IMG/VR virus record: IMGVR_UViG_3300023371_000086
Origin: an uncultured virus (IMG/VR IMGVR_UViG_3300023371_000086)
Taxonomy: Duplodnaviria; Heunggongvirae; Uroviricota; Caudoviricetes
Length of the DNA: 64,000 nt
Reading direction: 5' to 3' (one strand)
Shown in pieces: positions 21,472 through 61,375 of the stretch. Positions within the stretch are counted from its first letter, which is position 1. Every line of letters starts with the position of its first letter. Position numbers and translations under genes: made by a program. The notes under the pieces were generated by a model, which had not been told where the DNA came from, ran no database searches, and worked only from the letters and a program-made list of their open reading frames with translations.

Positions 21472-21475
21472 AACT

Positions 21476-22066: not shown

Positions 22067-22270
22067 TTACTTTCTGCTAAGATTAACAACTCCACCTGAC
22101 AGACATGCAACACAATAGTCGACATCCATGCCTTCCTTCCAATATCTGTATGCCATTTCAACATACTCCTTGGTCTTTTCCATGCAATAGCAAACTACTT
22201 TAGGCTTATTGACGATTCTACTTGCTCCTACAAGCTCTTCAATCATCTGCTTCTTGGTTAACTTACTCAT
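22067..22270 (-). CDS. Hypothetical protein
   Basis: 67 aa; AGTAAGTT-ATG. Confidence 0.7.
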   Translation of the reverse strand: MSKLTKKQMIEELVGASRIVNKPKVVCYCMEKTKEYVEMAYRYWKEGMDVDYCVACLSGGVVNLSRK

Positions 22271-22282
22271 AACTTACTTATT

Positions 22283-22462
22283 CTAATAGGTTTCAATCAA
22301 TCTCTTCTTACTAGGCTTGGTCATAAGCATGTCCGACCACACACCTCCTACAGGTCCATATCTCCAAAACTTCACAAAGTGAGGCTTCTCTGCATACTGC
22401 TCAATGTATAGCATGGTTCCTGAACCGGCCTCAAACACTTCTCTTTTGTAAACTATTGTCAT
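22283..22462 (-). CDS. Small hypothetical protein (59 aa)
   Basis: Read by hand: MTIVYKREVFEAGSGTMLYIEQY... Confidence 0.6.
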   Translation of the reverse strand: MTIVYKREVFEAGSGTMLYIEQYAEKPHFVKFWRYGPVGGVWSDMLMTKPSKKRLIETY

Positions 22463-22465
22463 AAC

Positions 22466-22699
22466 CTAACAAGCTACTGTATAAAGATACAACTTCTTTC
22501 CTTCAAGCTCCTTGAACTCAAAAACCTTGTACTTTCCCTTCTCGTCAATAGTGAGCATCAGCTTAGTGTAGCTACCACCATTCCACTTCTTTGCAAAGTC
22601 TATGAACTGATAAGACTTCTTGCTGCTTCCGACCTGGAATACGTGACCCATGCACATTCCGTCAAAATCCCAATAATTGCATTTTTCAATGATCTGCAT
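22466..22699 (-). CDS. Hypothetical protein
   Basis: 77 aa ORF in array. Confidence 0.7.
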   Translation of the reverse strand: MQIIEKCNYWDFDGMCMGHVFQVGSSKKSYQFIDFAKKWNGGSYTKLMLTIDEKGKYKVFEFKELEGKKLYLYTVAC

Positions 22700-22710
22700 A
22701 ACTATATCTC

Positions 22711-23070
22711 CTAAAACTTTACTTCTTTCTGCTTGTATGACACTATGTACTGTCCGTTGTACTCTACCTTGAAAACACAGATGGCTACATCTCCGTGAGA
22801 TTCAATCTTATTCTTAACATACTCTTTGTTCTCACCGCCTTCTGCTCCACGAGTTCTTAAGCCAAGCCAAAAAACAAAAGGACAACTACTGTTGCTTTCA
22901 ACTTCATAATCCCTACATTCCTTATCGATTCTTCTAAGGTGCTCTATCTCAGCCTGTGCATCGTTAATGATAAGGTGCTGATTGAGGACCATCGAGTATG
23001 CGTTACACATATTCCATAAGAAGTTCTCCACCTGCTCTATTGTAGCAAATTCTTTCTCTATCTTTTTCAT
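22711..23070 (-). CDS. Hypothetical protein
   Basis: 119 aa, first gene after promoter 23101-23133. Confidence 0.7.
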   Translation of the reverse strand: MKKIEKEFATIEQVENFLWNMCNAYSMVLNQHLIINDAQAEIEHLRRIDKECRDYEVESNSSCPFVFWLGLRTRGAEGGENKEYVKNKIESHGDVAICVFKVEYNGQYIVSYKQKEVKF

Positions 23071-23235: not shown

Positions 23236-24003
23236 CTAATCGTCTATAGCAAAGTAGAACTGATCTATAATCACAAGCATTTCTGGTGGAAGGTATTTTT
23301 TTACTTCTAACCTCATCCATAGAGGAATCCCCCACACTGCTTCTGCTATTCCACCAACAATAGCTGCTATGGTATCCGTGTCACCACCATGAGCTACAGC
23401 TTTTCTTATGGCTTCTTCAAAGCTATCTGACTCAGAAATTATCTTGAAGCACAACGGAACAGTACCTTGACAAGTCTCATCGAACACACCTTTCTTATAG
23501 TCTGCTGTCAAACAGCCTGGATAATACTTTTCAGCTATGCTATTAACTGCACTGCGCTTTGCACCGGAGATATGTCTTGCAAACCATATTGCACTTGCCA
23601 CTGCAACAGCACCTTTGATGCCTTCTTCATGGTTATGAGAACATTCTGCAGACATCTTTGCCTGTCTCTTGACTTCTTCATAGTCATCGTAATAGAATCC
23701 TATGGCAGAAACTCTCATGGCAGAGCCATTGCCGAAGCTGTTGTATGGATTGTGATCCTTCGACCTTACCCATCCTGCGAACCTTGCACCATAGCCTCCC
23801 ATAGGGTGAGGGTACTTACTGCACCACTTAGCTATGGACTGGCCGTAATCTTTACCACAAAGAATGGCATCTGCCACAGCTATCGTACAAATGGTATCAT
23901 CTGTGAAATCGCACTCCGAGTGAAATATCTCGAACTGCTGTGTAAAAATATTGTCGAACTCAAACCTTGAGCCGACAACATCACCTATAATTGCACCCAA
24001 CAT
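23236..24003 (-). CDS. ADP-ribosylglycohydrolase (DraG/ARH family)
   Basis: GAIIGDVVG, FTDDT, SFGNGSAMRVS, SHNH and GGDTDTIAAIVG motifs. Confidence 0.92.
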   Translation of the reverse strand: MLGAIIGDVVGSRFEFDNIFTQQFEIFHSECDFTDDTICTIAVADAILCGKDYGQSIAKWCSKYPHPMGGYGARFAGWVRSKDHNPYNSFGNGSAMRVSAIGFYYDDYEEVKRQAKMSAECSHNHEEGIKGAVAVASAIWFARHISGAKRSAVNSIAEKYYPGCLTADYKKGVFDETCQGTVPLCFKIISESDSFEEAIRKAVAHGGDTDTIAAIVGGIAEAVWGIPLWMRLEVKKYLPPEMLVIIDQFYFAIDD

Positions 24004-24360: not shown

Positions 24361-26082
24361 TTAATTTTCAATTATATAACAAATTATCTCAATAACTCCG
24401 CTATCATTCATTTTTGCTGACGTAACCTTATACTTTAGGTCTCTCTGCAATAACAATTCTGCTTCTTTGCTTATCTGTCGTTGTGCAGTCTTGCCATCCC
24501 AAGACAATCTATCATTACATCCAAATGCAGAAAAAGGGTCACAATATGCACCTTTTGTACCCTTTGGAACAAATATCTGAAAATCTACTGATCTGCTGAA
24601 TCCTCTACCCTTAGTAACTCCACAGCTTACGAATGCCTTATCTGTAAGCTCTTTTCCAACAAGACTATCTAGCAACTTGTCACTTGCTCCTGTCAAATCA
24701 ATGCCGGTCATGTTTGCCCATGCATCAACACCTCGCCTAACCCAAACATCCTCCGGAATGGTATTTTTGTCAATGTATTCCGTAAGCAACTCGATTTGCT
24801 TTGTATCAGGCTCTCCCTTTCTCATTGGCCTGTTATATGGAGCCTCATCCCAAGTATATTCATAAGCTGCCTTTCTCATATCAGCATCTGAATCAAGCCA
24901 AGCCTTACTAGCTACTGGGAACATAATATCATTCATCTCCTGCACTGTCCTCCAGTCAGTCTCCTTCATTCTCTCCTCAATAGACTTGACAACCTTTGGC
25001 TTAGGTGGATACAAAGCTCTATTGATGTAGACACTATTGTCTTTCATGTAGTATGGCAACGTACCTATCTTCTTTGCTCTGAGGATTCTTGCCTTGTTGT
25101 CGAATATCCATTGATTGAAGCCTTCGGGCGGTGCAGTAACAGTGTTTACGCTCTTTCTTGCATATTGCTTACCACGTAATATGGAATCACTCTGCTTGTC
25201 GAACTCCTCCTGGGTATTGAGGATAGGAACTACGTAACAGCGACAATTCGGGTGCCAAGGTGTAAAAAAGAAATCCTTTGGGTACTTTCCCTTGTGTGAC
25301 TCACATATGTCGCAATGATAAGGATGTGTACTTCTCTTCACCTCAAAACCTACTATGAAATCAAGGTCTTGGTATCTCTGCATTTCAGCACTATGATATG
25401 CCATATTGATTTCAGTCCTTGCAAGTCTTTGAGCATTTCTCACACTGCTTCGATATGCTCCTGCTCCGGGATGATAAGACTTTGCATTCTTTGACAGCTT
25501 CAATTCTCCGTACTTGTCACGAACTCTACGAAATAACTTATCCGGCTCCTTGAGACACTTCTTAACTTTCCTAGCAAGTTCTGCCGCAGATTCTCCTCTT
25601 TCGATTGACAAAGCCAACTGAGTTTCAAGGCGGTGGTACTCTGCCATATTCCACACCTTGTCTGACAGGCTCAATCCTTTGATTTTTCTTTTCTGAAAAG
25701 CTTCAAGAGCCTTATCGTGATTATTGAACAGATCAACAACATCCGAATTCTTTATGGCATCTATATTAACACCCCTGCTTTTGAACAAGTCTCTGACCAT
25801 TTGGTCTGTAATTTCGTTGGATTTCTTCCACTCGGCAGAGGTTCCAGTGAGAATCACATCGTATATGGACGAAGATAGGCTGTTTACGACACTATCTGCC
25901 TTCTTCTTGAGGGTTGGATAGTCTTCGAAGAAAAACTGGCTAGAATCGTCGTATTTTGCCTTGCCGAACAACTTACAGAATTCAGAAGTGGCATCATCAA
26001 AGAATCGCTCAAGCATCTGCAGATACTTGGCGACCCTCTGAATATGAGCATTGCTCTGATATGTGTAATCGACCTTTGCCAT
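24361..26082 (-). CDS. MuF/SPP1 gp7-like minor head protein fused to a C-terminal VIP2-like ADP-ribosyltransferase
   Basis: After portal; RLARTE, CDIC, PWHPNCRC (MuF); C-terminal YT...YNRPMR, VRRG, FVSCG, EAELLL (R-S-ExE ART). Confidence 0.85.
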   Translation of the reverse strand: MAKVDYTYQSNAHIQRVAKYLQMLERFFDDATSEFCKLFGKAKYDDSSQFFFEDYPTLKKKADSVVNSLSSSIYDVILTGTSAEWKKSNEITDQMVRDLFKSRGVNIDAIKNSDVVDLFNNHDKALEAFQKRKIKGLSLSDKVWNMAEYHRLETQLALSIERGESAAELARKVKKCLKEPDKLFRRVRDKYGELKLSKNAKSYHPGAGAYRSSVRNAQRLARTEINMAYHSAEMQRYQDLDFIVGFEVKRSTHPYHCDICESHKGKYPKDFFFTPWHPNCRCYVVPILNTQEEFDKQSDSILRGKQYARKSVNTVTAPPEGFNQWIFDNKARILRAKKIGTLPYYMKDNSVYINRALYPPKPKVVKSIEERMKETDWRTVQEMNDIMFPVASKAWLDSDADMRKAAYEYTWDEAPYNRPMRKGEPDTKQIELLTEYIDKNTIPEDVWVRRGVDAWANMTGIDLTGASDKLLDSLVGKELTDKAFVSCGVTKGRGFSRSVDFQIFVPKGTKGAYCDPFSAFGCNDRLSWDGKTAQRQISKEAELLLQRDLKYKVTSAKMNDSGVIEIICYIIEN

Positions 26083-30033: not shown

Positions 30034-30666
30034 TCAAAATAGTGTTGGAGAACCATCATTCTTCCTCTCGTCATTTCTGTAAGCTTTGTCTGTTGCCGGC
30101 AGATCCTCCCTCTCAATTCCGTAGACATTGTCAATCTTCCAGGCAATTCTTTCAAGCTCCTCCTCACCTTTTACCTTGTTGGCATTGGTTATCTTGCAAC
30201 TTTCCTTGTAGAAATAATCAAGCCCTCTACCCATAGCCTTTCCTCTCCTGGTATGCATGTCGAAAGCCCAATTTGGAATCTCCTTCATTTCCTCTCTGTT
30301 CTGTTGCCAATAAACAGTGATTGCATGATCAATGAATCTTGACTTCCTACTATTGACAAGAACTGCTATTGCGTGAGTAAAAGGCAGCTTCTTGGCTCCA
30401 ATATCTTTTCGCATTGTCAAGTAGTCAAACGACTGCTTCAATGCCATAATCTGAACCACACAACTTGGCTCGCCTAGACCTACATCCTCACTGGCCATGA
30501 TAATCATTCGCTTCCAAGCATACTCCTCATAGTTGCTTTCATACAGCTCGATTCCCCAATACATCGCATCTTCAAGAAGCCCCCTTCTTATGGACTTCTG
30601 AAAAGCCGAAGCGACTTCGTAAAAGTCATAACCTTTCTTCGTAAGTCTCTGATAACTATCTCCCAT
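30034..30666 (-). CDS. Stand-alone MgsA/RarA C-terminal-like domain protein
   Basis: YEVASAFQKSIRRG...AMYW...KRMIIMASEDVGLG...A...KS; no Walker A. Confidence 0.75.
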   Translation of the reverse strand: MGDSYQRLTKKGYDFYEVASAFQKSIRRGLLEDAMYWGIELYESNYEEYAWKRMIIMASEDVGLGEPSCVVQIMALKQSFDYLTMRKDIGAKKLPFTHAIAVLVNSRKSRFIDHAITVYWQQNREEMKEIPNWAFDMHTRRGKAMGRGLDYFYKESCKITNANKVKGEEELERIAWKIDNVYGIEREDLPATDKAYRNDERKNDGSPTLF

Positions 30667-30697
30667 AACTCATTAAACTTTAATTGATTAGCTTCTA

Positions 30698-30730
30698 TAA
30701 AGTTACGAAATATATTGTTTCAACGAGCCA
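30698..30730 (-). promoter_or_regulatory. Phage promoter, TGGCTCGTTG-N15-TAACTTTA class
   Basis: Exact box and spacing. Confidence 0.7.
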
Positions 30731-30745
30731 TGACACTCTTTAAAA

Positions 30746-31489
30746 TTAGTATGGAATGACAAGGGTTCTCTGGAACTCAGACTTTCTCTTTGCAAGCATC
30801 GTATCCTCTTTCAGCCTTATGGCATCACCAAACATTCTGCGAAGAAAAAGAGTATCCTCCATCTCCTGCTTGTTGGTTCTTGTGTTGGCACATCCTCCAG
30901 TGTTTCCAAAGGTCTTCTGACCAACTGCACTGAATCTCTTGTCAATCCAACAGTATCTATGAACATAGGCGTTGTAGGCAGAAATCCAGTAGTCTTCACT
31001 CACCTTTGCCATTTCATGGAAGAACAGCTTAGAACCTTCAAGTAGACCTATATCTCCATTAAGTATTCCGGTAAGGTGGATTGGGTGATTCTCATCATAT
31101 GCAAGAGGATTGCACTCCTTACTGATTCCAAACAGGAAGCATCCTGCCATCTTTGCACAGTTGCCTATATACTGAATGATGTCGTATGCTTCATCCTTAT
31201 CAAGCACTGCATCTTCTCCTTTCTCCACATACAATCTTCCAAGATGTTTGATGTCATCGTCGATTTGGAACGAATTTTTAAAATGCTCATATATGAACTG
31301 CCTCTTGAGAGTGAGACCCTTAAGACTATCGGGATGTGTCAATATCTCCATTCCTTGATTATGCTCACGATATGCAGACTCCTCAGATTCAGGTACACAC
31401 AGCACTGCGTTACTAATGGCGTTCTTTGTGAGAACTCTATCTGCCCTTCCCATTGACGGAATGACAATCTTTATATCTACAGCAGACAT
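30746..31489 (-). CDS. GT-A fold glycosyltransferase (GREB1-like / TET-associated TAGT family)
   Basis: IVIPSMGRA, QIDDDI, SEDY and NTGGC motifs. Confidence 0.75.
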   Translation of the reverse strand: MSAVDIKIVIPSMGRADRVLTKNAISNAVLCVPESEESAYREHNQGMEILTHPDSLKGLTLKRQFIYEHFKNSFQIDDDIKHLGRLYVEKGEDAVLDKDEAYDIIQYIGNCAKMAGCFLFGISKECNPLAYDENHPIHLTGILNGDIGLLEGSKLFFHEMAKVSEDYWISAYNAYVHRYCWIDKRFSAVGQKTFGNTGGCANTRTNKQEMEDTLFLRRMFGDAIRLKEDTMLAKRKSEFQRTLVIPY

Positions 31490-31490
31490 A

Positions 31491-32117
31491 CTACTTCTCC
31501 TCCCATTGTTTGCGGAACTTGTCTACATCTATGACCATAGCCTTTCCTGTTCTTGAATTCTTGTAAGACTGACACTTCTCTATGCCTAGCACTGTCTCAA
31601 GGAAAGCTGTATCAATACTATTCTTCGATACGATTATAACTGCATCGTACTTCTCAGAGAACTTAGGAACTAGAGGATACACACAAGTGGCATTACTCTC
31701 CTTGTGGAACTTCTCCTCAAACTCAGTCATGAATGCCTTAAGCTCCTCCTCTTTGAAGCCTATGCCTAACAGCATATCTTTTTTGAAGTACTTTGCAAGG
31801 AGGTCATGGTCTATGCTTGCTGTATTCTTCGACAACCTGGCATTGAGTTCCATTTCTTCATCCGGATATGAGCAATACACTTCAACACAAGGCAGCTTGG
31901 TGTATCCAAGCTTCTTTGCTACTCTCAATCTCTGATGACCACCGACAATGACATTCTCTCTACCTTCTTGCATATTGACGATTATCGGATCAACGAATCC
32001 GAACTTCTTGATACTGTCCTCTATGCCCTTCTCCTCTTTTGGAGTACACTTCTTTGGATTGTACTCTGCCGGCTTTAGGGTGTCTATGTCCTTATAGACT
32101 ATCTTCATTTCTTCCAT
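31491..32117 (-). CDS. ParB N-terminal (ParB/Srx) domain protein
   Basis: LKPAEYNP, SIKKFGFVDPIIVN, VGGHQRL. Confidence 0.88.
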   Translation of the reverse strand: MEEMKIVYKDIDTLKPAEYNPKKCTPKEEKGIEDSIKKFGFVDPIIVNMQEGRENVIVGGHQRLRVAKKLGYTKLPCVEVYCSYPDEEMELNARLSKNTASIDHDLLAKYFKKDMLLGIGFKEEELKAFMTEFEEKFHKESNATCVYPLVPKFSEKYDAVIIVSKNSIDTAFLETVLGIEKCQSYKNSRTGKAMVIDVDKFRKQWEEK

Positions 32118-33154
32118 AACTTATTAGCTTTAGCGATGAACTTGTATGAGTTGACCATCCATTCTTTCAGACCGAACACATTCATCATCGAATACATCAA
32201 ATGACGGTACGACCTTACAAACAGGAACAGATAAATGCTTAAGAATCCAACATACGAAAAGAGGGTGTGGTATAGTGTTGGATATGACAATAACGGACAG
32301 ATTAAGACAAGACACATAAGCCATAGGCATCTGAATGTGCTCAATGTCTTTTTAAGAGCCTCCAGAGCCATTCCATTGTATCCTCCGGAATACGCCACAC
32401 ACATATTAACAGCTCGTCTTGCTTCATCCTTTACATCAAATGACATTCTTTCAGTATTGATGTGAACCAGCGGGTCATAAATATCTATACAGTCTCCAAC
32501 TTTGGGATATATGAAAGAACCTTCCTTGAAATAGAAGTCACACTGCGAACCTCTCCTAATCTGACAGCATACTCCTTTGTCTGCATCCAATGTGACGTAC
32601 TCAGATATGTACTTATCCATAGTCAGCACCATCAGAAAGTTCGGATACTCAATCACAAGAGCATCATTGTTCATATACTCTCCAACATTATCTGACACAA
32701 GGTTGTCTCCGGATACCATTTCAAGATTACCATCGGAATAGTGCTTCCAAATATGTACAATCTTACTTGGATTAAGCACTATATGCTTGCTGAACTTATT
32801 GAGGTACACAGCAACATGATCGTAAGCTTTCCAACGCCTCTCAAACTGTCCAACAATATCATATTCGAAGCTATCACGTGAGAAGTCAATAGCATCACGC
32901 TTCTTGAGATTCATGGTAGAAACCCCTCTCTCAACAAGTGTGACTATTCCATTTACAGGAGACACTATCCTAGGAAGCGTAAAGCTTTCATTACGGACTT
33001 CCAGGCTTGACAGATAGAATAGGATATCATCCAAGTAGTTGTTCATCCATAAAACACCTAAACAGGTCAAAATTCCTGCAAACGGATGCATCAGCAAAGA
33101 CACCGGAAGAACTATAGCTACTATGTATCTTAGTATGTTTGCAAACTTTGTCAT
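32105..33154 (-). CDS. Phosphatidylserine-decarboxylase-like pyruvoyl enzyme with N- and C-terminal TM segments
   Basis: IVSPVNG (cf. SPADG), VYLNKFSKHIVLNP (cf. IFMSxxNVHVNRxP), QIRRGSQCDFY (cf. IRFGSRVD cleavage motif). Confidence 0.65.
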   Translation of the reverse strand: MTKFANILRYIVAIVLPVSLLMHPFAGILTCLGVLWMNNYLDDILFYLSSLEVRNESFTLPRIVSPVNGIVTLVERGVSTMNLKKRDAIDFSRDSFEYDIVGQFERRWKAYDHVAVYLNKFSKHIVLNPSKIVHIWKHYSDGNLEMVSGDNLVSDNVGEYMNNDALVIEYPNFLMVLTMDKYISEYVTLDADKGVCCQIRRGSQCDFYFKEGSFIYPKVGDCIDIYDPLVHINTERMSFDVKDEARRAVNMCVAYSGGYNGMALEALKKTLSTFRCLWLMCLVLICPLLSYPTLYHTLFSYVGFLSIYLFLFVRSYRHLMYSMMNVFGLKEWMVNSYKFIAKANKLWKK

Positions 33155-34005
33155 TTCACAACCTCCTCTACTTTTATGAGTAATTCTTCGAATGTATGCC
33201 AGCCTTCGTCATAGTCATTAACTGACATTTCAACATCATTTAACAGACAGAACGGATTGTAGCCTCTAAGTATGTTTACAAGCGATGTTCCGGAAATCCT
33301 CTTGCTTCCCTCAATGTAGTACAACTTTCCGCTATGGTCTTCAACGACCTGAATGTGACATGGGCCTCTGAACATTCCAAGCACATCGGCATTCACAACA
33401 TCACGTGCGAACCTAGCCACTTTATGACCATCGAACAAAAACCTTATGTACCTATCGTATCCTGCTCTCAGTTTCACCTCTCTTGGGTATAACTGCACAA
33501 CTTCTCCGTCTTGATCGACAAACATATCAACAACATATTCGTGAGCGATGTCAATCCTTTGCTGTACACAATAGTCATCAAGGTTCATTATGCCCTTACT
33601 TCCTGCAGACATCGTATTGGGCTTTACAATAACTTCATCTGCCATCAATGTCTTAGGAACAGAGACTCCTCTACTTTCAAGCATGGCTGTAACGAATCTC
33701 TTGTCATACATTTCCTGGCCGACACAATTAAACCACTCACCTGCTCCATATTTACATCCTCTCTGCCTTGTAAGTTCATCAGCAGGGAAGACGACAAATT
33801 CTCCTAGATACTCACGAATCAGAACACTAGCACACAATGTCTTTACAGAATCATATCTTTCATTATTGGTAGCATGGAAAACCTTGTCATCATCCACCAT
33901 AAAAAGATTATCGTCACATTTAGCAAGCTTCTTATATTGCCTAAAAAACATCAGTGCAGAAAGACCTGCCCTGCTTCCAGCTTCAAATACAACCCAGTTT
34001 TTCAT
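33151..34005 (-). CDS. ATP-grasp ligase
   Basis: DK...GVSVPKT, VIVKP...GSKGI, VQQRI...EYVVD, GPCHIQ, YIEGSKRISG. Confidence 0.82.
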   Translation of the reverse strand: MKNWVVFEAGSRAGLSALMFFRQYKKLAKCDDNLFMVDDDKVFHATNNERYDSVKTLCASVLIREYLGEFVVFPADELTRQRGCKYGAGEWFNCVGQEMYDKRFVTAMLESRGVSVPKTLMADEVIVKPNTMSAGSKGIMNLDDYCVQQRIDIAHEYVVDMFVDQDGEVVQLYPREVKLRAGYDRYIRFLFDGHKVARFARDVVNADVLGMFRGPCHIQVVEDHSGKLYYIEGSKRISGTSLVNILRGYNPFCLLNDVEMSVNDYDEGWHTFEELLIKVEEVVK

Positions 34006-34643
34006 GACTTCATCTTCTGTATGTAAAACAATTCTGCGTAATCAGCTCCACACTCTCTACCTCTAATGGCAGCAAGGGAACGGATGCCTTCTTCATTGAT
34101 TGGAGACGGAGCCTTTCTGATCTGACTCTCGTACTTCTCCATCAAATCACATTTAGCATCAATGACATCACCTATATCGTGATACCACCTACCTCCGTCA
34201 ATTATTTCTCCTGGCTCAAGACATGGATACTCATACAATGCGACCATCTTAGGGACATAACCTTCCCTCTGTCTCATTGAAGCCATTGCACATTCGTACA
34301 ACTTCTTGTGGTCTTGGTGGTGTGATGTGCAGTTAATGAAAACCTCATCTGGTCTATATTCATCCACTTCCTTGTCTATCGCACTTATAATCGAACGACT
34401 AGGGACAGTGTCTAACTCTGCATCTTTTCCGTAGAACAGAACTTTGTAGGTTGCTTTGAGATTTTGGACGACAGACATCACCTCCAACTCCCTTGTGTTA
34501 GAATTCTGACGGATGTCTTCTCCACCTATGGCACCATAGATTATGTAGATGCTGTTACCTTTTTGACTTTCATGCAAAAGATAACCTCCTACTCCAAGCA
34601 CCTCGTCATCTGCATGGGGTGCTATCACCAATATCTTCTTCAT
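34002..34643 (-). CDS. PIG-L / LmbE family N-acetylhexosamine deacetylase
   Basis: APHADDE, R..E, HHQDH, YE, K...YESQ, YAELF motifs. Confidence 0.9.
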   Translation of the reverse strand: MKKILVIAPHADDEVLGVGGYLLHESQKGNSIYIIYGAIGGEDIRQNSNTRELEVMSVVQNLKATYKVLFYGKDAELDTVPSRSIISAIDKEVDEYRPDEVFINCTSHHQDHKKLYECAMASMRQREGYVPKMVALYEYPCLEPGEIIDGGRWYHDIGDVIDAKCDLMEKYESQIRKAPSPINEEGIRSLAAIRGRECGADYAELFYIQKMKS

Positions 34644-51473: not shown

Positions 51474-51752
51474 TCATTTTTTATATCCGCCTAAATCCAC
51501 AGTATCAAGATCTATAGAAACGCAATAATCTTCTTTCATATAACCATTTGTAAAGCTAATGCGTACGTAAGGATCATCTGTTACTTTTCCGAAAAACCCA
51601 TTACCGCCTATAATAATTTGAATGCTTTCACCTTTAAGAGGGACTCTTTGTAATTCAAATACAGCTTCATCAATAAATTGGCTAATAGCACGTCTTTTTT
51701 CAATAGGATACCTTTCGCGGTAACATTCATCAACAAAAATTACAACTTCCAT
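51474..51752 (-). CDS. Hypothetical protein
   Basis: 92 aa. Confidence 0.65.
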   Translation of the reverse strand: MEVVIFVDECYRERYPIEKRRAISQFIDEAVFELQRVPLKGESIQIIIGGNGFFGKVTDDPYVRISFTNGYMKEDYCVSIDLDTVDLGGYKK

Positions 51753-52594
51753 TATTCCTCCTCCTTTGGCTTGTTGTAGGCTTCTGTGAACTCAAGTCCT
51801 ATAACTCCTGCACAGTTAACCTTTGTGGCTGAAATCACGTTAATCTTCATACTCTCCTGGGCTATGTAGGAATCCACAACACCAAGTCCGTTTTCATCCG
51901 ACTTCTGTGCTATCTTCTCACGGACATGCTTCTCAATCTTCAACTTGGCATCCTCCACATCCTTTGCGTAAATCAAGAACCGGTACGACCTTTCGTTGTC
52001 TTCTCCAAGAGTCACATTCGCTTCAATCGAATAGAACATGTAGACATACACTTTCTCCTCGTTCACTTCGTTCTCTGGCTTTTCCACGCCTTTATCCTCG
52101 ACTAATTTCACTGTATCATCGAAGATGAAGATGTGGTCCTTGTACTCCTTTGCTGACGTTAGAGAGAAGTTTATGTCACAATGAAGCTCTAGGTAATCCT
52201 CTGCAATCTCAAGAGCCTGGAAGATGTTTCTTGCGAACAGCAGATACTTGTGCTTCTTCGTCAGCTTTGCTGTGACACACCAAGGCTGAACGCCCCAACC
52301 TGTAGCGAAGACTCCACACCTTTTCTGATCGGAAACTGTCACCTCTGTAACGTCTCCTGCCTGGAGGTGGAAGTTTATCACTGCTAGCTGATCATGCAGC
52401 AGGTGTGTTCCTTTCTCCAAGACCATTTCATTACGTTCAACTTGGATTATTTCTCCAGAATCTTCATCAAGGAAGTTCTCATACCACTTACGGAAAAGCG
52501 GCTTTACAAGATACTTCCCATACATTTCATCAGTATTGGATGTGGTCATTATGACCTCATTCTTTTTTGTCTGAATCTTTTTGTTCTCTTTCAT
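51752..52594 (-). CDS. Protein with an N-terminal RNA polymerase beta-insert-like domain and tandem DUF4494-like domains
   Basis: GKYL...W.ENFLDEDSGEIIQVERNE resembles Bacteroidetes RpoB GRKL...[20 protein letters not shown] (from memory). Confidence 0.6.
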   Translation of the reverse strand: MKENKKIQTKKNEVIMTTSNTDEMYGKYLVKPLFRKWYENFLDEDSGEIIQVERNEMVLEKGTHLLHDQLAVINFHLQAGDVTEVTVSDQKRCGVFATGWGVQPWCVTAKLTKKHKYLLFARNIFQALEIAEDYLELHCDINFSLTSAKEYKDHIFIFDDTVKLVEDKGVEKPENEVNEEKVYVYMFYSIEANVTLGEDNERSYRFLIYAKDVEDAKLKIEKHVREKIAQKSDENGLGVVDSYIAQESMKINVISATKVNCAGVIGLEFTEAYNKPKEEE

Positions 52595-52799
52595 ATTCTT
52601 TCAATCTTACTTTTTCAATTTTCTCAACTTTGGCATAATCCCTAACTATTCTTTTTGCCAGTCTTACTGCCATCTTTTCGTCTATGTCATTAAACTGCCA
52701 ATCCGAAATATGGGCTTCTGCCATTCTAATAACTTTTTTCAATGCCTCTATACCTTCCTTCGATATAGTCACCTTGCACATTATCACTTTCGGCTTCAT
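52557..52799 (-). CDS. Hypothetical protein
   Basis: Start revised to MKPKVIM. Confidence 0.6.
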   Translation of the reverse strand: MKPKVIMCKVTISKEGIEALKKVIRMAEAHISDWQFNDIDEKMAVRLAKRIVRDYAKVEKIEKVRLKEYEREQKDSDKKE

Positions 52800-52801
52800 G
52801 T

Positions 52802-53731
52802 CTAATATGGGGGTTGAAATGATATCTGAACTCCTCTGCTCCACTTGTTCATGAAAGGAGCCAATATATCCATGTTCTGCTTTAGGAAAGCTGCAACATC
52901 TGACTTGCAATAAACAACTGGCGTTCCTCCTCTCCATCCTCCGTCTGCCTTTTCATCAAGCATCTTCATGGCTGTATCCGGCTGCGACCTTTTCACTGCA
53001 TCATACACCGACTTCCACATCTTGAGGAAATCTGCAGAACATCTGTCTCCAGCCTCCTGCGGCTTCCACTGCATTGCAAGTCCTAATCTCTCCTCTACTG
53101 TCGACCATACCTTTCCACTCTTACCTGTCCACTTGTGCGATTCGTTGTGGCCGAAGAACCTTTCTGCTTCTTGTCTAGGATTCTTGATATTCCTAAAAAA
53201 GATACATTCGTAATAAACTTCTTGTTGTTGTTCCTCGCGCACGTGTGCGTGCGTATTATTAACAATAACAATACTATTACTATCCTCTCCTATCCTATCC
53301 GGCGTCGAGTTCCCTGCGTGACCACGTGGGGTGCTCGTAGTGGTCTCTACGTGGTCTCCTGTAGAGTTCGATTTTATGCCCAAAACCTTATCTACAACCT
53401 CTTCCGGAACCACCCTCTTGAAGTATCTTTTATCAACAACCTGATGGTCTGCGAATGTTCTTACGACATAATAGTTATCTCTGCTGTGCGTGAAAGGAAT
53501 AATCATCTTAAGTTCCTCAAGCTTCTTCAACCATGCCTTGACTTCTGAAACTTTCAGATCATCATCGTATGGGAAAATCCTTGACTTGAGAAAAGACGGA
53601 TTGGCATTGAAGACACCCTGGTCATCTGCGAATGTCCAGCAACCGATATAGAACAGCCTACACTCCATAGGCAGTGATGCTATATGCTCGTCATCCCAAA
53701 ACTCAGGCTTTATGCTTCTTATTCTTGCCAT
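52802..53731 (-). CDS. Replication initiator protein
   Basis: MARIRSIKPEFWDDE...RLFYIG.W..ADD.G N-terminus; low-complexity linker with short repeats. Confidence 0.8.
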   Translation of the reverse strand: MARIRSIKPEFWDDEHIASLPMECRLFYIGCWTFADDQGVFNANPSFLKSRIFPYDDDLKVSEVKAWLKKLEELKMIIPFTHSRDNYYVVRTFADHQVVDKRYFKRVVPEEVVDKVLGIKSNSTGDHVETTTSTPRGHAGNSTPDRIGEDSNSIVIVNNTHAHVREEQQQEVYYECIFFRNIKNPRQEAERFFGHNESHKWTGKSGKVWSTVEERLGLAMQWKPQEAGDRCSADFLKMWKSVYDAVKRSQPDTAMKMLDEKADGGWRGGTPVVYCKSDVAAFLKQNMDILAPFMNKWSRGVQISFQPPY

Positions 53732-53743
53732 TCTTAATCAATT

Positions 53744-54139
53744 CTAATATCCGGAACGTGTCAGCTTTAACTGTTCCTTGCTGAACGAAATCTGTGTTCT
53801 CATGTTCTCACCGATGTGGACCAATGCCCTGTTAAGCCTTTCAATCCAATTAACAAGCATGTTGGCTTCTCCACACATTGATGCTACCATCTTGTTGACT
53901 GCAGATGCAGGCATTCCAGTGAAATCGTATGCCATGTATGCATCGAACAGTGACTTGTCTTGTATCATCTTTGCTTCTGCAAGCATTACCGATGTCCTTG
54001 CCATATAGTGGTTAAGGTCAGTCAGCCTGTCAACAAGCACATTTGCATCATCTGTAGGGCAACTCTGAGCGAACAACTGTATCCTCTCTGCCTCATCGTT
54101 CAGCAGCTTGAATTTCTGTTCATATTCCTGCGGTATCAT
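53744..54139 (-). CDS. Helical hypothetical protein in recombination module
   Basis: 131 aa, coupled to the MBL gene. Confidence 0.7.
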   Translation of the reverse strand: MIPQEYEQKFKLLNDEAERIQLFAQSCPTDDANVLVDRLTDLNHYMARTSVMLAEAKMIQDKSLFDAYMAYDFTGMPASAVNKMVASMCGEANMLVNWIERLNRALVHIGENMRTQISFSKEQLKLTRSGY

Positions 54140-54879
54140 AATGTAATCTCCTTGTTAAAGGACAGCGTAACTCCCTTTCTTGCTACAGTCACCATCTTAC
54201 CTACTGACTCCTCTACTTTCGTCTTGAACATATCCGAATCCGAATTGTTGCTCGATAGATGCAATAGGACAACATTGTTTACCCTTGAAATGTCATTTGC
54301 CTTCAAAGTGGATATTGTGGTTTCAAGCGACATATGAGACTGCTTAATGCGGTCTTTTACGAATGGCTTGATAACTCCTGCTTCAACATTCCTTTCAAGG
54401 ATTCCGTTATCGTAATTGCACTCAATCATTATCTGGGTAAGGTCATCGAACTTGTACTTCAAATAGTATGTATCCGTAGCGAATAGCAAAGTACCTATGG
54501 CTTCATGCTGTATGAGGAATCCTATAGGCTCTGCCGAATCATGCTGAGTATCGAAAGCCATTACTTTGAAGCCTCCAAGCTGATAAGTCTTGAGACATTC
54601 AACAATCCTAGGTCTGATTGGCTTTTTAAACGGCCAATTTTCAACTGTACCATTCGAAGTGAGGGTTGGTATTGCTGCTTCTAGATATTGCTCAATATAA
54701 CGGCAATGATCGCCATGTTCGTGAGTAACCAAAGCACCTACAATCTTCCTCCTGTCGAATCCGACAGCCTCAAGGCATCTGGAGTAAGTGCAACCGCACT
54801 CCAACACCAGTGCCTCTCGGTCATCGTGTAGCACATATCCGTTGGCTCTAGAGCCGCTGTCCAGCACTGTAAGCTTCAT
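54136..54879 (-). CDS. Metallo-beta-lactamase-fold hydrolase (YycJ-like exonuclease)
   Basis: SGSRAN, THEHGDH, HD, TDT, IECNYD, SHMS, LHLS. Confidence 0.9.
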   Translation of the reverse strand: MKLTVLDSGSRANGYVLHDDREALVLECGCTYSRCLEAVGFDRRKIVGALVTHEHGDHCRYIEQYLEAAIPTLTSNGTVENWPFKKPIRPRIVECLKTYQLGGFKVMAFDTQHDSAEPIGFLIQHEAIGTLLFATDTYYLKYKFDDLTQIMIECNYDNGILERNVEAGVIKPFVKDRIKQSHMSLETTISTLKANDISRVNNVVLLHLSSNNSDSDMFKTKVEESVGKMVTVARKGVTLSFNKEITL

Positions 54880-55688
54880 TATTGCATCCAGTCTGGAATG
54901 TCATTACTTGCACCAACAGGAGCTTCTGCGGTTGGAACCGGCTTCACAGTTTCGGCTTGCTTGATTTCAGAAGCATTATTCACAGGCTCCGCACCTGCTG
55001 TGTCAATCTTGATTGTCTTGGCATTGGCTTTCTGCTTGATTTCCTCCTCTACCGACTGAACTCCGTAACCCTGGTCTTCTGCTGTGTCATGAAGCTCCTC
55101 TGCAGTCATGAGTCCCATGCCAATCTCCGGACAGTTTGTCCTCTGCCAAAATGCTGCTGCTCTGTACATGAGCATCTGACCTGGCATTGTCTTCCATTTG
55201 CTTCCGTTCTTGTTGAACCAACCTTCTGCCTTTGCCATTCCGATAGAAACCCACTGTCCGTAAAGTGGCTCCTTCTTGAGCTTGTCATCAGCTTCGTAGG
55301 TGTAGCATCTGCAAGACCAGTCGTCAGCACCCTCCGTTCCTTTCCACTCATATCTGAGCCTTGCATACTGACCGCTTGCATTGATAGTGGCAATCAAAAA
55401 CTTGCTAGACCAGCCTGGATTGCCGTGAACAATGTAGAGATTCTGCATAATCATAAGAGGATTGGCATTCATTCTCATAGCCATGTCCAATGCGATTACA
55501 CAGTTGCCAAGATTACCTTTGTAGGTGTCAGGCACGATTGTGCTCTCAGAATACATCTTGGCCATTCTTTGCTGTGTCTCGAACTGCTTTATCTGCTGTC
55601 CGATTGGAGTGAGTGCGAATGCGGCTGCACTCTGAGCCTTGATGACTTCAATCTGATTGGCAGTCATCTGATTTGTTCCTTCATTCAT
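54879..55688 (-). CDS. Single-strand annealing recombinase (RecT-like)
   Basis: VP..Y.GN..NC.IA...P..MQNLYIVHG.P; W..MP.QML.YRA; GL...EE; acidic tail DIPDW. Confidence 0.8.
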   Translation of the reverse strand: MNEGTNQMTANQIEVIKAQSAAAFALTPIGQQIKQFETQQRMAKMYSESTIVPDTYKGNLGNCVIALDMAMRMNANPLMIMQNLYIVHGNPGWSSKFLIATINASGQYARLRYEWKGTEGADDWSCRCYTYEADDKLKKEPLYGQWVSIGMAKAEGWFNKNGSKWKTMPGQMLMYRAAAFWQRTNCPEIGMGLMTAEELHDTAEDQGYGVQSVEEEIKQKANAKTIKIDTAGAEPVNNASEIKQAETVKPVPTAEAPVGASNDIPDWMQ

Positions 55689-55742
55689 AACTTACTTTTT
55701 TGATTTGCCTTGTAAATATATGCATAAGTGATTGATTGCGAA

Positions 55743-57701
55743 CTACATAACAACAAGTTTTTCACAAGTTTCATCTGCAGTCAAAGTGATAATCTGACCT
55801 ATCGGGTCAATGATTTCGAAAACAGATTCCTTGTTGTCTATGAACATTGGCATCGAAATGCCAAGCCATTTAGAAATTGCGTTCACAACGTCAATACCAG
55901 CATTTACTTTTGCTGCATAGTTGAGATTGCCGGAGTAAGGAACACCATTGACCAACGGCTCACATATTTCCTTTTCTCCATCATTGGTAACATTCCTTTC
56001 GTACATCTGAAACTTTACAAGGCTGAACATTCCGGATACCTTCTCCTCTACAGCGTTGATTCTTTCCTTACCATATCTCTGAATCTCGTGCAGTAAAGCA
56101 TCGTGTTCTGCCAGTCTTGCAGCTACTTCTACAGCCTCCTGCTCCAACTGAGACCTTCTTTCTTCAATCTCCTTGATCCTGGACTCCTCACCCAACATCC
56201 TGAGAACATCCTTCAACCTTGCCTTGAGAGAGAGCTTTTCATTTTCAATCTCAGAATCATCGTAAGCCTTCTGCGACTTATCCTTTTCAATGGAAATCTT
56301 CTCCTTTACAGAAGCCTCCTTTGAAATGAGTGTCATATACTCCCTGCTTGCTTCCTTGAGATTTTCTATAGTAGGTACTGAATCAAGCTTTAAAACAGCT
56401 CTGCTTTCTTCTTCAACCGCCTCTCCTCTGCTTTTCTTGAAAGACACCACCTTCTCATCAATTTCATTCTTCTGTTCCTTAGCCTTGGTCAATGCCTCAG
56501 AAATCTTGTTGCCCTTTTCCCTTACTTCTTTCAGTCTTTCAACCTTTTCTACATTGAATCTTCTGATAAGGTCATTTCTCCTTTCAGCAACAACATCTTC
56601 ATCGAACGGACGGCCACAAGTAGGGCAGGCTGCATCAACTGTATCCTTGAACTCACTTGCATTAACCTTTGTCCATTCCTCTCCACATGCCTTAAGATTC
56701 TTCTGATACTCGTTAATCTCAATATCAAGCATCTGAGACTTTCTTTCCAAAGAGGATATGTCAGCACTGAATGCTCCAATCTTTCTTCCAATGGCTTCTA
56801 TCTGCGACTTGTGCTGATAAACGGCATCCTCCCTTTCCTTGCGGAATGACCTTTCACAGTCCTCTATCTGACTACGTATTTCGTTCAACTGCTTGTTAAG
56901 GTCTGCACATGCATCAAACAAAGTGGCATCTGCATGTCTTTGAAGAACTCCATCAATTTCAGATATTCTCCTTTCAATCCTTTCAGCTTCCGACTTAAGG
57001 GCAGCGAAATCATGTGTAGGTCTCTTTCTCTCATTTTCGTCAATCCTCAAAGGAATGCCGATTCTTGCTTCCTCATCCCTTTTCCTGGCAAACAGAGCTC
57101 TCTGCTTGGAACCATCAACCGACTTTGTTTCCTTGATGTCCTTGAATAATCTTGGATATGCCTCCTCAGTCAAGATGTCCGGCATTTCTCCTGCCATCTG
57201 AACCAATAGCGATCTTGCATCCTTTACCGGCAACGAAAAGAACTGGAAGACCGATGAAATCATACGAAGCTTGTCTGCATCACAGAATGATTCCTTTATC
57301 TTTGCGTTGAAGGCTATTGCAGTGACAGGAACATCATCTATGAAATAGTCAGTGCTATTGCCTTTGAGAACTTCCTTATCAGTACCCTTTGGCTTTGACC
57401 ATTTCTGACTCAAGCACCTCTTGAATACTGTCTCTACTCCATCAACAGAGAATCTGCATGAAACTGTTGTCATCAGCTTCGGAATAGTCTCATTGTTCTG
57501 ATCGACAGGCTGAACCTTGAACGATTCACTACCTTTAGAATCCTTGCCAGTGAGAAGCCATAGATAGGCATCATACACACTGGTCTTACCCGTGCCGTTG
57601 TTTCCACGAATCTGTGTCAACAGGCAATCAATGTCAACCTCAAAGTGGCTTATACCCTTGAAGTTGTCAATGGTCATGTTTCTTAAAAATACTTCCTTCA
57701 T
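55743..57701 (-). CDS. Rad50/SbcC-like ATPase
   Basis: NFKG, Walker A GNNGTGKT, long coiled coil with CPTC hook, FIDNKE. Confidence 0.88.
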   Translation of the reverse strand: MKEVFLRNMTIDNFKGISHFEVDIDCLLTQIRGNNGTGKTSVYDAYLWLLTGKDSKGSESFKVQPVDQNNETIPKLMTTVSCRFSVDGVETVFKRCLSQKWSKPKGTDKEVLKGNSTDYFIDDVPVTAIAFNAKIKESFCDADKLRMISSVFQFFSLPVKDARSLLVQMAGEMPDILTEEAYPRLFKDIKETKSVDGSKQRALFARKRDEEARIGIPLRIDENERKRPTHDFAALKSEAERIERRISEIDGVLQRHADATLFDACADLNKQLNEIRSQIEDCERSFRKEREDAVYQHKSQIEAIGRKIGAFSADISSLERKSQMLDIEINEYQKNLKACGEEWTKVNASEFKDTVDAACPTCGRPFDEDVVAERRNDLIRRFNVEKVERLKEVREKGNKISEALTKAKEQKNEIDEKVVSFKKSRGEAVEEESRAVLKLDSVPTIENLKEASREYMTLISKEASVKEKISIEKDKSQKAYDDSEIENEKLSLKARLKDVLRMLGEESRIKEIEERRSQLEQEAVEVAARLAEHDALLHEIQRYGKERINAVEEKVSGMFSLVKFQMYERNVTNDGEKEICEPLVNGVPYSGNLNYAAKVNAGIDVVNAISKWLGISMPMFIDNKESVFEIIDPIGQIITLTADETCEKLVVM

Positions 57702-58841: not shown

Positions 58842-59774
58842 ATGAATCTATTTGAATCGGTAGCAAAAATCAAGGATGTAGCAACTCATGCACTCCATGC
58901 CATAACAACAGAGGAGGCTACAAAAACAGCACTCATACTGCCAATGCTGTCTGCTCTTGGATATGACATTTTCAACCCATATGAGCTGATACCTGAAATG
59001 GACTGCGACCTTTCTAGAGGTGGCGACAAGGTGGATTATGCAATATCTATCAACGGATCAATACGAATAATCATAGAGTGCAAGCACCATACTTGCAACC
59101 TTGCTGTACATGCTCCACAGCTCATGAAATACTATGCAGCATCAGAGGCGAAGTGTGGCATAATTACAAACGGCATCGAATATTGGTTCTATTCTGACAC
59201 AGTAAAGCAGAACATCATGGACAAAGAACCATTCCTTAAGTTCAACCTACTTGAAATGGGAAACGATGTCATCGAAGAACTGCACATGTTCTCCAAGGAC
59301 AGATTCAGCAACGAAGCCATACAAGGATACATTCGTGAGACCGAGCTTCGTGACAAGATAATCAAGTCATACAGATCGAACGTGACTAAGATGTCGGACG
59401 GATTCATCGAACTAATACTTGATTCTGCAGGAGTAGCCAAGTCTACAGACAACATAAGCCTATGCAGGGAGATACTTGCATCCGAGACAGGCTTCGAATC
59501 ACCAACACAGAATTCAGACGGTCTGTCATTGGTCGAAGTTGCAAGACACATACTGAGCGACTTTGCGGAGCCATCAAGGGTCTTTTCTGTGAAGTATAAG
59601 GAACACGAGACACTGTTCCTTGACAACCAGTCCAAGTGGCTATGCAGGGCATACAAGGGCAAGGGGATGATAATCTTTCCTCCTGCAAGCGAAAGCAGCA
59701 CTATGGACTATTCAAAAGCATCAGACCTTAATAAATATAAGGAACACCTGCTCAATGTAGCCAAGGGATACTAG
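58842..59774 (+). CDS. HsdR N-terminal-like PD-(D/E)xK nuclease-domain protein
   Basis: TEEATK.ALI.P...LGYD, KVDYAI...IECK, QL.KYY, TNG..Y.FY.D. Confidence 0.85.
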   Translation: MNLFESVAKIKDVATHALHAITTEEATKTALILPMLSALGYDIFNPYELIPEMDCDLSRGGDKVDYAISINGSIRIIIECKHHTCNLAVHAPQLMKYYAASEAKCGIITNGIEYWFYSDTVKQNIMDKEPFLKFNLLEMGNDVIEELHMFSKDRFSNEAIQGYIRETELRDKIIKSYRSNVTKMSDGFIELILDSAGVAKSTDNISLCREILASETGFESPTQNSDGLSLVEVARHILSDFAEPSRVFSVKYKEHETLFLDNQSKWLCRAYKGKGMIIFPPASESSTMDYSKASDLNKYKEHLLNVAKGY

Positions 59775-59798: not shown

Positions 59799-60065
59799 AT
59801 GCCATCTACTCAAATACCAAAGGCTGCCATTGATATAAATGCAAGATTCTTCCAGGCTGTTGACTACCTTGTGGAAACAAGGAGAATCAGAGGACTTGGA
59901 ACTATAGCTACATTATGGGATGTAAGCCGCTTCTCTCTCACATGGTCAAAGAATCATCCTGAAGAAAAGCGACTCAAGATTGAATACATATATTATATAG
60001 CGAGGGACTACAACATATCACTGAACTGGCTCTTTTTCGGAAAGGGCGAAATGATTGAACCATGA
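59799..60065 (+). CDS. HTH DNA-binding protein
   Basis: RFF.A...ISLNWLFFGKGEM. Confidence 0.65.
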   Translation: MPSTQIPKAAIDINARFFQAVDYLVETRRIRGLGTIATLWDVSRFSLTWSKNHPEEKRLKIEYIYYIARDYNISLNWLFFGKGEMIEP

Positions 60066-61375
60066 TCTGCTTCTATCTCACTAACAGAGGGCGAGAAAAG
60101 TCGCCTATCAAAATGGAGATATACTTCAAGGGTAAGCACTACTCTAAGTATATCGGCGAGAGCGTGGACACAGCAATGTGGAACACAAAGAAGCAGGTAT
60201 CAAGGGTAACATCATCGTATCCGGAAGGCTCTCTAATCAATTCGCAGGTAGAAAAGTGGAGAACGGCAGCTTCCGAGACAATCGAACATTTCAAGGACAG
60301 GATGTCGCCTCCTTCTTCTGACGAATTCAAGGAAGAACTTGAAAAGCGAAGATTCAAGGACGGATACAGAACTCCTACGTCTTTGGTGGACTATTTCGAC
60401 ACATTCATAAAAAGGTATGAGAAAACAAGGTCTCCAGGACGAGTGAAGCACTACAGGCTTGCAAAAAACATCGTCACTGAATATCAGTCTGAAAAGAAAG
60501 TTACATTACGCTTCGAAGACATCAACCAGGACTTCTATAACCGGTTCACAGAATGGTTCTACTTGAAAGGTCATTCTGCAAACTACCTTGGGGAGACAAT
60601 AAAGGTCCTTAAGCTCGTTATCAACGAAGCAATGATAGTTGATAAGCTCCACTCAAATATTGACTTCAAAAGCCGTGGATTTTTGGCTCCTTCATCCCAG
60701 GTGGACAGCATCTACCTTACCGAAGACGAGCTTTTAAAGCTTCACAACCTTGAAATCAATGAAACAACAATTCAAGAAAGTTTCAACGGAATAGACATTT
60801 GGCAGACACAGCGAAAGATAAAGGCTTACACAAAGGCAAGGGACATGTTTCTAATCGGAGCATTCACCGGACTGCGAGTATCAGACTACTCTAGGCTTCT
60901 TCCTGAGAACATCACAGACAAGGTGAGGATACAAGCAAAGAAGACAGGCATCAAGTCAGTCATTCCTATTCATTGGGTGGTCCAGGAAATCATCGACAGA
61001 GGATACGACTTCTCAACAACAATGACCGATCAGAAGCTTAACAAGCACATCAAGGAAGTGGCGAAGCTTGCCGGCATTTCCGAAGAAGTCACCTACACAA
61101 AGAACGTGGGAGGAAAAGCTGTGCAGTTATCTTCTCCGAAGTATGAACTGATAAGCAGTCACACTGCCAGGCGTTCGTTTGCAACCAATGCATACAAGGC
61201 AGGAATACCGACTGTCTCAATAATGAAGATTACCGGACACAAGAAAGAAAGCACATTCCTCAAGTACATAAAAATCTCCGAGGAGGAAAATGCCGAAATG
61301 CTTATGACGCATTCTTTCTTCACGAAGCCAAATGCAGAGGGAAACGCAGAGGTAAAAAACAATGACGAAACTTAG
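60062..61375 (+). CDS. int: Tyrosine integrase
   Basis: TGLRVSD, KTG, SHTARRSFATN, TGH, FLKYI catalytic motifs. Confidence 0.95.
   Translation: MICFYLTNRGREKSPIKMEIYFKGKHYSKYIGESVDTAMWNTKKQVSRVTSSYPEGSLINSQVEKWRTAASETIEHFKDRMSPPSSDEFKEELEKRRFKDGYRTPTSLVDYFDTFIKRYEKTRSPGRVKHYRLAKNIVTEYQSEKKVTLRFEDINQDFYNRFTEWFYLKGHSANYLGETIKVLKLVINEAMIVDKLHSNIDFKSRGFLAPSSQVDSIYLTEDELLKLHNLEINETTIQESFNGIDIWQTQRKIKAYTKARDMFLIGAFTGLRVSDYSRLLPENITDKVRIQAKKTGIKSVIPIHWVVQEIIDRGYDFSTTMTDQKLNKHIKEVAKLAGISEEVTYTKNVGGKAVQLSSPKYELISSHTARRSFATNAYKAGIPTVSIMKITGHKKESTFLKYIKISEEENAEMLMTHSFFTKPNAEGNAEVKNNDET

Follow-up and report, generated by a model that had tools for sequence, protein, structure and literature searches.

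The beta-i4 insert (SI1) of the RNA polymerase beta subunit (RpoB) is the closest described counterpart of the protein analysed here. In E. coli, beta-i4 covers residues 225-343 and consists of two BBM2 modules, as described in PMC2939025. Structures from Bacteroidota are available for a Flagellimonas-type 'Fta' RNA polymerase (F. taeanensis, 9N9P) and for that of P. gingivalis (8DKC) (10.1101/2025.06.10.658880). The role of the insertions in Bacteroidota RNA polymerase is stated as open in PMC11685472. For B. subtilis, PMC8318588 describes a partner of SI1, the Tudor domain of the helicase PcrA, which binds the tip of a hairpin. According to this source, PcrA-CTD protects the hairpin tip of B. 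subtilis RpoB, and change of a glutamate disrupts the pulldown. The PcrA/UvrD partners described there (RpoB, UvrB, YxaL, YwhK) have a hairpin with a DxxTGE-type tip, and the helicase-interaction motif is given as [VIL]DxxTGE[VIL][VILT]. The sections of PMC8318588 considered here name no phage protein among these partners. Phage interference with the transcription machinery is represented by T7 Gp2, T4 Alc and the sigma mimic D29 gp53 (10.64898/2026.10.05.756390). These proteins either bind to the polymerase or mimic a factor, whereas the phage protein reported here would imitate the polymerase's own surface.

The stretch of DNA that was analysed (64,000 nucleotides, referred to as the window) is from an uncultured virus (IMG/VR record IMGVR_UViG_3300023371_000086). 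It codes for tail, head, portal and terminase proteins and for an integrase (60062..61375, plus strand; phrog_1, E=2e-23), which is a marker of temperate phages. The window is from a temperate tailed phage. An early block runs leftward. It consists of recombination genes (SbcC-like ATPase, RecT-like annealing protein, metallo-hydrolase; 54136..57701, minus strand; Pfam and PHROG matches) and a gene for a replication initiation protein (52802..53731, minus strand; phrog_1408, E=3.4e-29). The initiator gene is two genes upstream of the gene under study (51752..52594, minus strand), which belongs to this early recombination/replication module. A 126-aa ORF (52557-52937, minus strand) overlaps both genes; it lacks a family match, and its start is probably located further downstream. 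Promoter and terminator scans stayed at chance level (17 versus 16.1 and 8 versus 5.6, respectively). None of the scanned ORFs of the window matched a helicase. From the RpoB match reported below and the taxa listed by the Atlas, we infer that the host belongs to the Bacteroidota.

Several other regions of the window deserve a comment. A head-morphogenesis protein (24364-26082, minus strand) has a match to an ADP-ribosyltransferase family, and an ADP-ribosylglycohydrolase (23239-24003, minus strand) is encoded two genes away. This looks like a toxin-antidote pair. Between the head/scaffold genes and this pair, approximately 10 kb (13539-23070, minus strand) are occupied by short genes, most of which have no PHROG match. 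Ahead of the terminase, a block that codes for an ATPase, a glycosyltransferase-like protein, a ParB-like protein and unassigned proteins (30037-34643, minus strand) may modify phage DNA. An HsdR-N-like endonuclease gene (58842-59774, plus strand), flanked by the presumed repressor region on one side and the integrase gene on the other, is a possible prophage defence gene.

The ORF at 51752..52594 is open and codes for a protein of 280 aa; the peptide that had been quoted in the sequence-only reading corresponds to residues 26-63. The protein is assigned to phrog_35807 (function not assigned; E=3.6e-54), and a copy in the nearest virus record (G001) is identical (280/280). Pfam and NCBIfam returned no named family for it. 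A weak biotin-ligase match (E=0.017) was set aside. In the Atlas, matches were to hypothetical clusters, with DUF4494 as a lead at 0.83. The AlphaFold model (pLDDT 91.6, pTM 0.78) has an N-terminal domain, two repeats and a linker between them.

The N-terminal domain (residues 12-89; 52328..52561, minus strand) is a BBM2 module. When the single sequence was compared to the PDB (177,635 sequences, E<=10), only two chains matched, both of them RNA polymerase beta: 9N9P_C over residues 223-280 (E=1.6e-6) and 8DKC_C (E=0.015). A profile of 144 family sequences reached E=1.3e-14 and 2.7e-8 against RNA polymerase beta in the PDB, and another family profile reached E=8.5e-12. Structurally, the domain matches 9N9Q beta 217-309 best, with a Foldseek E of 8.3e-5 and an overlay at Z 7.8 (rmsd 3.6, 81 aligned). 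Other folds score nearly as high (MoeA Z 7.3; beta' BBM2 and MoeA range from Z 6.5 to 7.3). Because MoeA ties in the fold score, the source of the domain is identified by sequence, not by fold. Upon alignment to 54 full-length Bacteroidota RpoB sequences (from 80 loci) and to E. coli RpoB, the segment falls within beta-i4/SI1. It corresponds there to one BBM2 module whose hairpin is extended. Thus, the claim of the sequence-only reading that the protein carries a Bacteroidota RpoB lobe insert is confirmed by the RpoB search and by the model superposition, with residues ~12-89 being a copy of beta-i4/SI1. The match is restricted to ~80 residues, and the rest is DUF4494-like. The conserved flanks from the beta-2 lobe and a full-length subunit are absent. 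The phage copy resembles its counterparts from Bacteroidota (9N9P/9N9Q, 8DKC) in sequence, in fold and in having a long acidic hairpin. Unlike these, it is free of polymerase and fused to DUF4494-like repeats, the phage family has invariant residues of its own (G62, F75, Q90, R92), and several host-invariant residues are missing.

A stray rpoB fragment was ruled out, since the relatives match over the whole length and the context is that of a phage. All matches obtained by a scan of host genomes were of rpoB length (80 loci). Two GenBank/plasmid sets with short matches contained rpoB-sized matches, and the one examined was rpoB. One entry that is filed as a bacteriophage (L309; MT836236.1) is a bacterial stretch coding for ribosomal proteins and RpoB. 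A survey for prophage copies returned one full-length copy among 401 genomes; as matches were obtained on approximately every fourth genome, this does not translate into a prevalence figure.

The hairpin is long and acidic (residues 33-59, strands 33-42 and 49-59 according to DSSP on the model; 52418..52498, minus strand). Conservation was analysed for 144 phage domains and 105 distinct host domains. In residues 33-56, agreement of the phage sequences with the host consensus is 65%, compared with 23% and 28% to either side. For the protein from the window, the values are 54% for the hairpin and 24% and 31% for the flanks. Hosts keep the hairpin at 93%, a figure to which 80 loci chosen by a pattern inside the hairpin contribute; among 28 hosts chosen by profile instead, it is kept at 94%. 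One face (residues 35, 37, 39, 41, 43, 48, 50, 52, 54 and 56), assigned from the strand register of the secondary structure rather than from coordinates, is kept at 0.83 in the phages and the other at 0.44. For the same two faces, the values are 0.95 and 0.88 in unselected hosts. Within the phage family, stem residues are best kept (R54 99%, D43 96%, E39 92%), followed by the key glutamate (82%) and the threonine (79%) of the tip motif. Phages have not kept the second hairpin face, nor the host-invariant residues A31, R32 and R61, which are outside the hairpin. Judged from these alignments, the protruding acidic hairpin, mainly one inferred face of it, appears to be the focus of conservation and the mimic surface.

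The fusion protein has 64 close relatives, and the family comprises 399 clusters at 50% identity (282 of them at E<=1e-10). In one relative, an FtsK-gamma domain is added. At 43 of 64 viral loci, a homolog of the initiator is encoded in the flank of the gene; at 31 of the 64, it lies no more than 1.5 kb downstream. Grouping of the loci at 70% identity leaves 27 groups, of which 16 and 10, respectively, have such a homolog. In a quick tree built from 40 phage domains, 40 host domains (drawn from the sets of 144 and 105) and one E. coli row (83 columns; the careful search is unfinished), phage domains are separated from host domains with a split support of 89. This fits one old capture for the fusion family, the domain presumably having been taken from a host. 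Repeated recent capture within the family is not supported, since the phage domains group apart from those of hosts.

The hairpin is found in other phage proteins as well. Two pattern scans of viral contigs yielded 17 and at least 94 stretches. After exclusion of 14 short loci, 97 ORFs were classified, of which 52 belong to the fusion family, 4 are RpoB and 41 are other proteins. Within the latter group, five ORFs (L330, L342, L349, L360 and L400) probably match by chance and were not considered further, and neither was L356, a frameshifted member of the fusion family. Overall, the beta-i4 hairpin appears in at least five architectures besides the fusion family.

One of these is an independent fusion in the reverse order (P0387, 259 aa; L423:6001-6780, the same gene as L359:1114-1890 on the minus strand), with DUF4494 first (E=7e-16, above the cut-off) and a complete beta-i4 last (RpoB residues 218-295, E=4e-14). 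It is encoded in a phage replication module, with genes for a DnaJ-like protein and RNase H adjoining and the initiator upstream. It occurred once across the searches. A second protein (L426:2239-3087, 282 aa) has a sliding-clamp-like N-terminal part (phrog_947, E=6e-6) that is followed by beta-i4 (RpoB, E=3.8e-21), and its gene is located between two SSB genes. BLASTP against E. coli DnaN gave no support for the clamp label. In proteins of only 96-100 aa, the hairpin resides on another scaffold (L308:4830-5132, L316, L324:1300-1587, L433:232-531). The 100-aa protein is also encoded by three Flavobacterium phages in GenBank (QCW20773, annotated as hypothetical), and the Atlas returned nothing for it. 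Coiled-coil phage proteins (L313:984-1760 and L317:3-1922, both on the minus strand) carry the hairpin directly after a common short tryptophan-rich motif. Eight metagenome loci include L426 and four BspA-repeat proteins that bear the insert. The latter (L429-L432, e.g. L432:256-3744) are BspA-type leucine-rich-repeat proteins of ~1160 aa with the beta-i4 module near the C-terminus, and they are possibly cellular. Siphovirus Gp157 proteins account for 28 of the 97 ORFs (e.g. L336:823-1302, minus strand). Their PcrA-motif-like stretch near the N-terminus is a likeness of the tip only, and this tip is a possible parallel in other phages.

Of 22 positions, 15-19 agree with the host consensus in the other captured hairpins, which is partly built into the search patterns, and 13 in the protein from the window. 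These captures bear on a rival explanation, namely that the domain was acquired once as a stable fold and that its hairpin is conserved purely for folding. The conserved face could indeed pack on the domain, and the split between phage and host domains in the quick tree is as expected after one old capture. However, hairpin residues persist in proteins that lack a BBM2 body (15-18 of 22 identical to the host consensus), I52 or V52 together with R54 are kept in L313, L316, L317 and L324 even though they are outside the search pattern, and the hairpin is present in at least six architectures. We thus consider a mere passenger highly improbable. That the domain is a mimic, as the sequence-only reading had proposed, gains support from conservation on the protruding hairpin, mostly on one inferred face, and from its recurrence in unrelated scaffolds.

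The C-terminal half had been described as two repeats of an L..A....A pattern with similarity to DUF4494. The pattern is present at residues 118-127 and 206-216, and the homology holds up with a qualification, being detected by hhalign below the Pfam cut-off. The first beta-beta-alpha-beta repeat (residues 103-150; 52145..52288, minus strand) was assigned by the model, Foldseek and hhalign, and its predicted fold resembles LX/eL20, PurS and, more weakly, Gp2. Between it and the second repeat (residues 186-259; 51818..52039, minus strand), which was assigned by the model, fold comparison and hhalign, there is an acidic linker (residues 160-185; 52040..52117, minus strand) that varies in length and is modelled with lower confidence (pLDDT 61-84). 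The 280-aa protein has no Pfam match to PF14902, its score being below the gathering cut-off, and only 3 of 30 relatives match this family (E 5e-4 to 0.045), the best with 20.5 of 27 bits and thus also below the cut-off. With hhalign, the probability for DUF4494 rises from 78% (5 rows) to 86% (22 rows; E=5e-6, 110 columns). The top viral match by Foldseek is a DUF4494 protein (5.8e-4), and the order of secondary structure elements is the same as in the host DUF4494 model. Median identity among the phage C-terminal halves is 25%. Like DUF4494 (PF14902; phrog_19572), the protein has tandem beta-beta-alpha-beta repeats and is encoded at the same position within phage replication modules. It differs in that the identity is only ~20%, the score is below the Pfam cut-off and the RpoB module is added.

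A literature search on DUF4494 returned no paper, and no clear solved relative was found by sequence. The host DUF4494 model resembles ribosomal LX/eL20 (Z 7.5), T7 Gp2 (Z 5.8, rmsd 2.1, 53 aligned) and epsilon (Z 4.3). As best fold match, LX/eL20 makes RNA or ribosome binding by DUF4494 a lead that may be worth following. The repeats of the window protein have a weak likeness to T7 Gp2 and epsilon (Z 3.7-4.5), below LX/eL20 and PurS. All these likenesses of predicted folds are under Z 8 and would not indicate a function. They bear on the idea that the beta-i4 copy docks in trans on the host RNA polymerase via the usual contact of the insert and delivers the Gp2-like repeats as an inhibitor or modifier of transcription. 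This would be in line with the likeness to Gp2 and epsilon, and the E. coli insert is described to move with the lobe (PMC6970531). However, the fold scores are at background level, and phages have kept neither A31, R32 and R61 nor the second face of the hairpin. We regard docking in trans as very unlikely.

DUF4494 is a host gene (L146-L148, where the adjoining gene is presumably YggS-like) and also a frequent phage gene (L228-L307), with 66-83% identity. Among host genomes, it was found in 5 of 5 and in 7 of 30. As a stand-alone gene in phages (528 stretches), it takes the slot of the fusion gene in replication modules, and among the best 80 of the 528 stretches, 46 are beside an initiator homolog. 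A separate DUF4494 gene was found in 0 of 19 fusion-bearing records (two sub-threshold matches fall inside the fusion gene, and a 20th record of this set is that of P0387), and the fusion was found in 0 of 25 phage records with DUF4494, for which the positive control worked; some records in both sets are incomplete. Fusion in both orders, in each case within a replication module, the shared slot and the apparent mutual exclusion would be explained if host DUF4494 were an unrecognised factor that acts at beta-i4 or binds it. Phages would then carry either DUF4494 alone, using the insert of the host, or DUF4494 fused to their own copy. The fold likeness of DUF4494 to the RNA polymerase binders Gp2 and epsilon points in the same direction, although ribosomal LX/eL20 outscores Gp2 and all scores are under 8. 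Other points speak against it. The reverse fusion was seen only once, and the other captures lack DUF4494. Among 28 genomes that code for the hairpin, many of which are incomplete, DUF4494 is found in 5 but a Tudor domain in 25. DUF4494 as a universal partner of beta-i4 was rejected based on this host distribution, and the reading of DUF4494 as a factor at beta-i4 is, on the whole, unlikely in our view.

A candidate partner that had been missed by the sequence-only reading is the Tudor domain of PcrA/UvrD, the sole one shown experimentally to bind the hairpin, as far as described in PMC8318588. The tip of the hairpin in the window protein (residues 42-50, LDEDSGEII; 52445..52471, minus strand) is a variant of the helicase-interaction motif defined in PMC8318588, with S for T. 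It fails the strict motif (SGE for TGE), is located on the beta-hairpin and has the key glutamate (E48). It is also the only relaxed match to the motif in the six frames of the window. Among 150 representatives of the fusion family, 35 have the strict motif, 63 a relaxed version and 107 the core, while shuffled sequences gave 0.01, 0.04 and 3.8, respectively. In E. coli RpoB, the motif occurs at position 302 and is aligned with the phage hairpin. The N-terminal domain can also be overlaid on 7EGS_A 226-337 (Z 5.4, rmsd 2.3, 56 aligned). The C-terminal Tudor domain was found in 59 of 61 genomes from the order of a Bacteroidales host and in 27 of 30 across the phylum. In the PDB, the Bacteroidota domain matches 7EGS_B best (E=9.4e-15), the UvrD chain of a crystal structure that also contains the lobe of E. 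coli beta. Compared with the PcrA/UvrD partners described so far, the fusion protein is phage-encoded, has taken the entire RpoB module and has S for T; what it has in common with them is a hairpin with a DxxTGE-type tip.

Our tentative interpretation, to which we give somewhat less than an even chance, is that the fusion protein serves as a plug-in mimic with host PcrA/UvrD as its target, for recruitment or for sequestration. It is suggested because the PcrA Tudor domain binds a homologous tip in Bacillus, the motif is far above chance and Bacteroidota keep the Tudor domain. Further reasons are that an initiator homolog is encoded near the gene at many viral loci while the window ORFs lack a helicase match, that beta-i4 has been joined independently to a clamp-like domain between SSB genes, and that Gp157 proteins have a similar tip. 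The protein would be made early in lytic growth and would display the hairpin away from the polymerase. By analogy to Bacillus, the hairpin would bind the C-terminal Tudor domain of the host PcrA/UvrD helicase, which would be pulled off the RNA polymerase. The helicase may then be brought to phage replication or recombination intermediates, with the DUF4494-like half as a carrier or anchor, or it may merely be sequestered. Recruitment and sequestration cannot be distinguished by sequence analysis.

Several observations argue against PcrA/UvrD as the target. The window copy has SGE, and stem residues (R54, D43, E39) are better kept than the key glutamate. NGE occurs in several independent captures, which is partly an effect of the search word. 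TGE is kept in none of 5 UvrB sequences from Bacteroidota, which may mean that the motif-Tudor system has a narrower reach in this phylum. The hairpin stays invariant in Saprospirales, where the Tudor domain gets low scores or goes undetected (3 misses among the 30 genomes surveyed across the phylum). DxxTGE also occurs as a common turn in BBM2 modules. Targeting of PcrA/UvrD leaves the double fusion to DUF4494 without explanation. In lambda, a uvrD mutation is described to have little effect on Red recombination (PMC2327257).

A decoy for another reader of the hairpin is the rival closest to the sequence-only reading. Candidates are a regulator of Bacteroidota RNA polymerase (DksA/TraR-like, Gre or other), the inhibitor of a rival phage or a polymerase-guarding defence protein. 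The entire hairpin of 24 residues is 93-94% invariant in hosts, which seems more than the small contact between Tudor domain and tip would need, and the residues best kept in phages are along the stem. The 96-100-aa proteins L316, L324 and L433, with little beyond the hairpin on another scaffold, look like pure titrators. In addition, the RNA polymerase insertions from Bacteroides are called uncharacterized in PMC11685472. However, the evidence does not name a candidate reader, and the position in the replication module and the clamp-like fusion point to DNA metabolism. The partners named previously fare differently. TraR binds E. coli Si1, which accounts for 77% of the interface (PMC6970531), but E. 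coli has two BBM2 modules and Bacteroidota only one. The premise that the insert is needed for the action of T4 Alc is weak, since Alc-resistance (paf) mutations are described to be outside beta-i4 (PMC2939025). Thus, mimicry as the core of the proposed titration of RNA polymerase-binding regulators stands, while the named partners are less well supported and a defence sensor as the titrated protein is no more than possible. A decoy for a reader other than PcrA/UvrD appears rather unlikely to us.

Returning to the preferred interpretation, the copies of the hairpin probably capture whichever host protein normally docks at this site, and a DNA-unwinding enzyme is the best candidate. It is tempting to speculate that the beta-i4 hairpin acts as a hub for docking, captured repeatedly by phages (in six or more architectures) in order to hijack its binders. 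DUF4494, as the two fusions of opposite order would indicate, would act in the same pathway as an unrecognised factor that links RNA polymerase, a helicase and DNA replication; this broader scheme is possible but doubtful.

The fusion protein family is real, widespread and apparently undescribed. In the literature searched (titles and abstract openings, with most subscription papers outside this scope), no phage copy of the RpoB beta-i4 insert is described, and imitation of the polymerase's own surface, if true, is a strategy for which no report was found there. The fusion provides a first handle on DUF4494. As a small, soluble and phage-selected copy, the insert is a ready bait for the partner of the Bacteroidota insertion. 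If this partner is PcrA/UvrD, temperate phages that lack a helicase would have a route to take that of the host. If it is not, a new polymerase-binding factor or sensor would be revealed. Having been captured repeatedly, the hairpin stands out as a site of conflict between phages and their hosts in a major phylum of gut and environmental bacteria.
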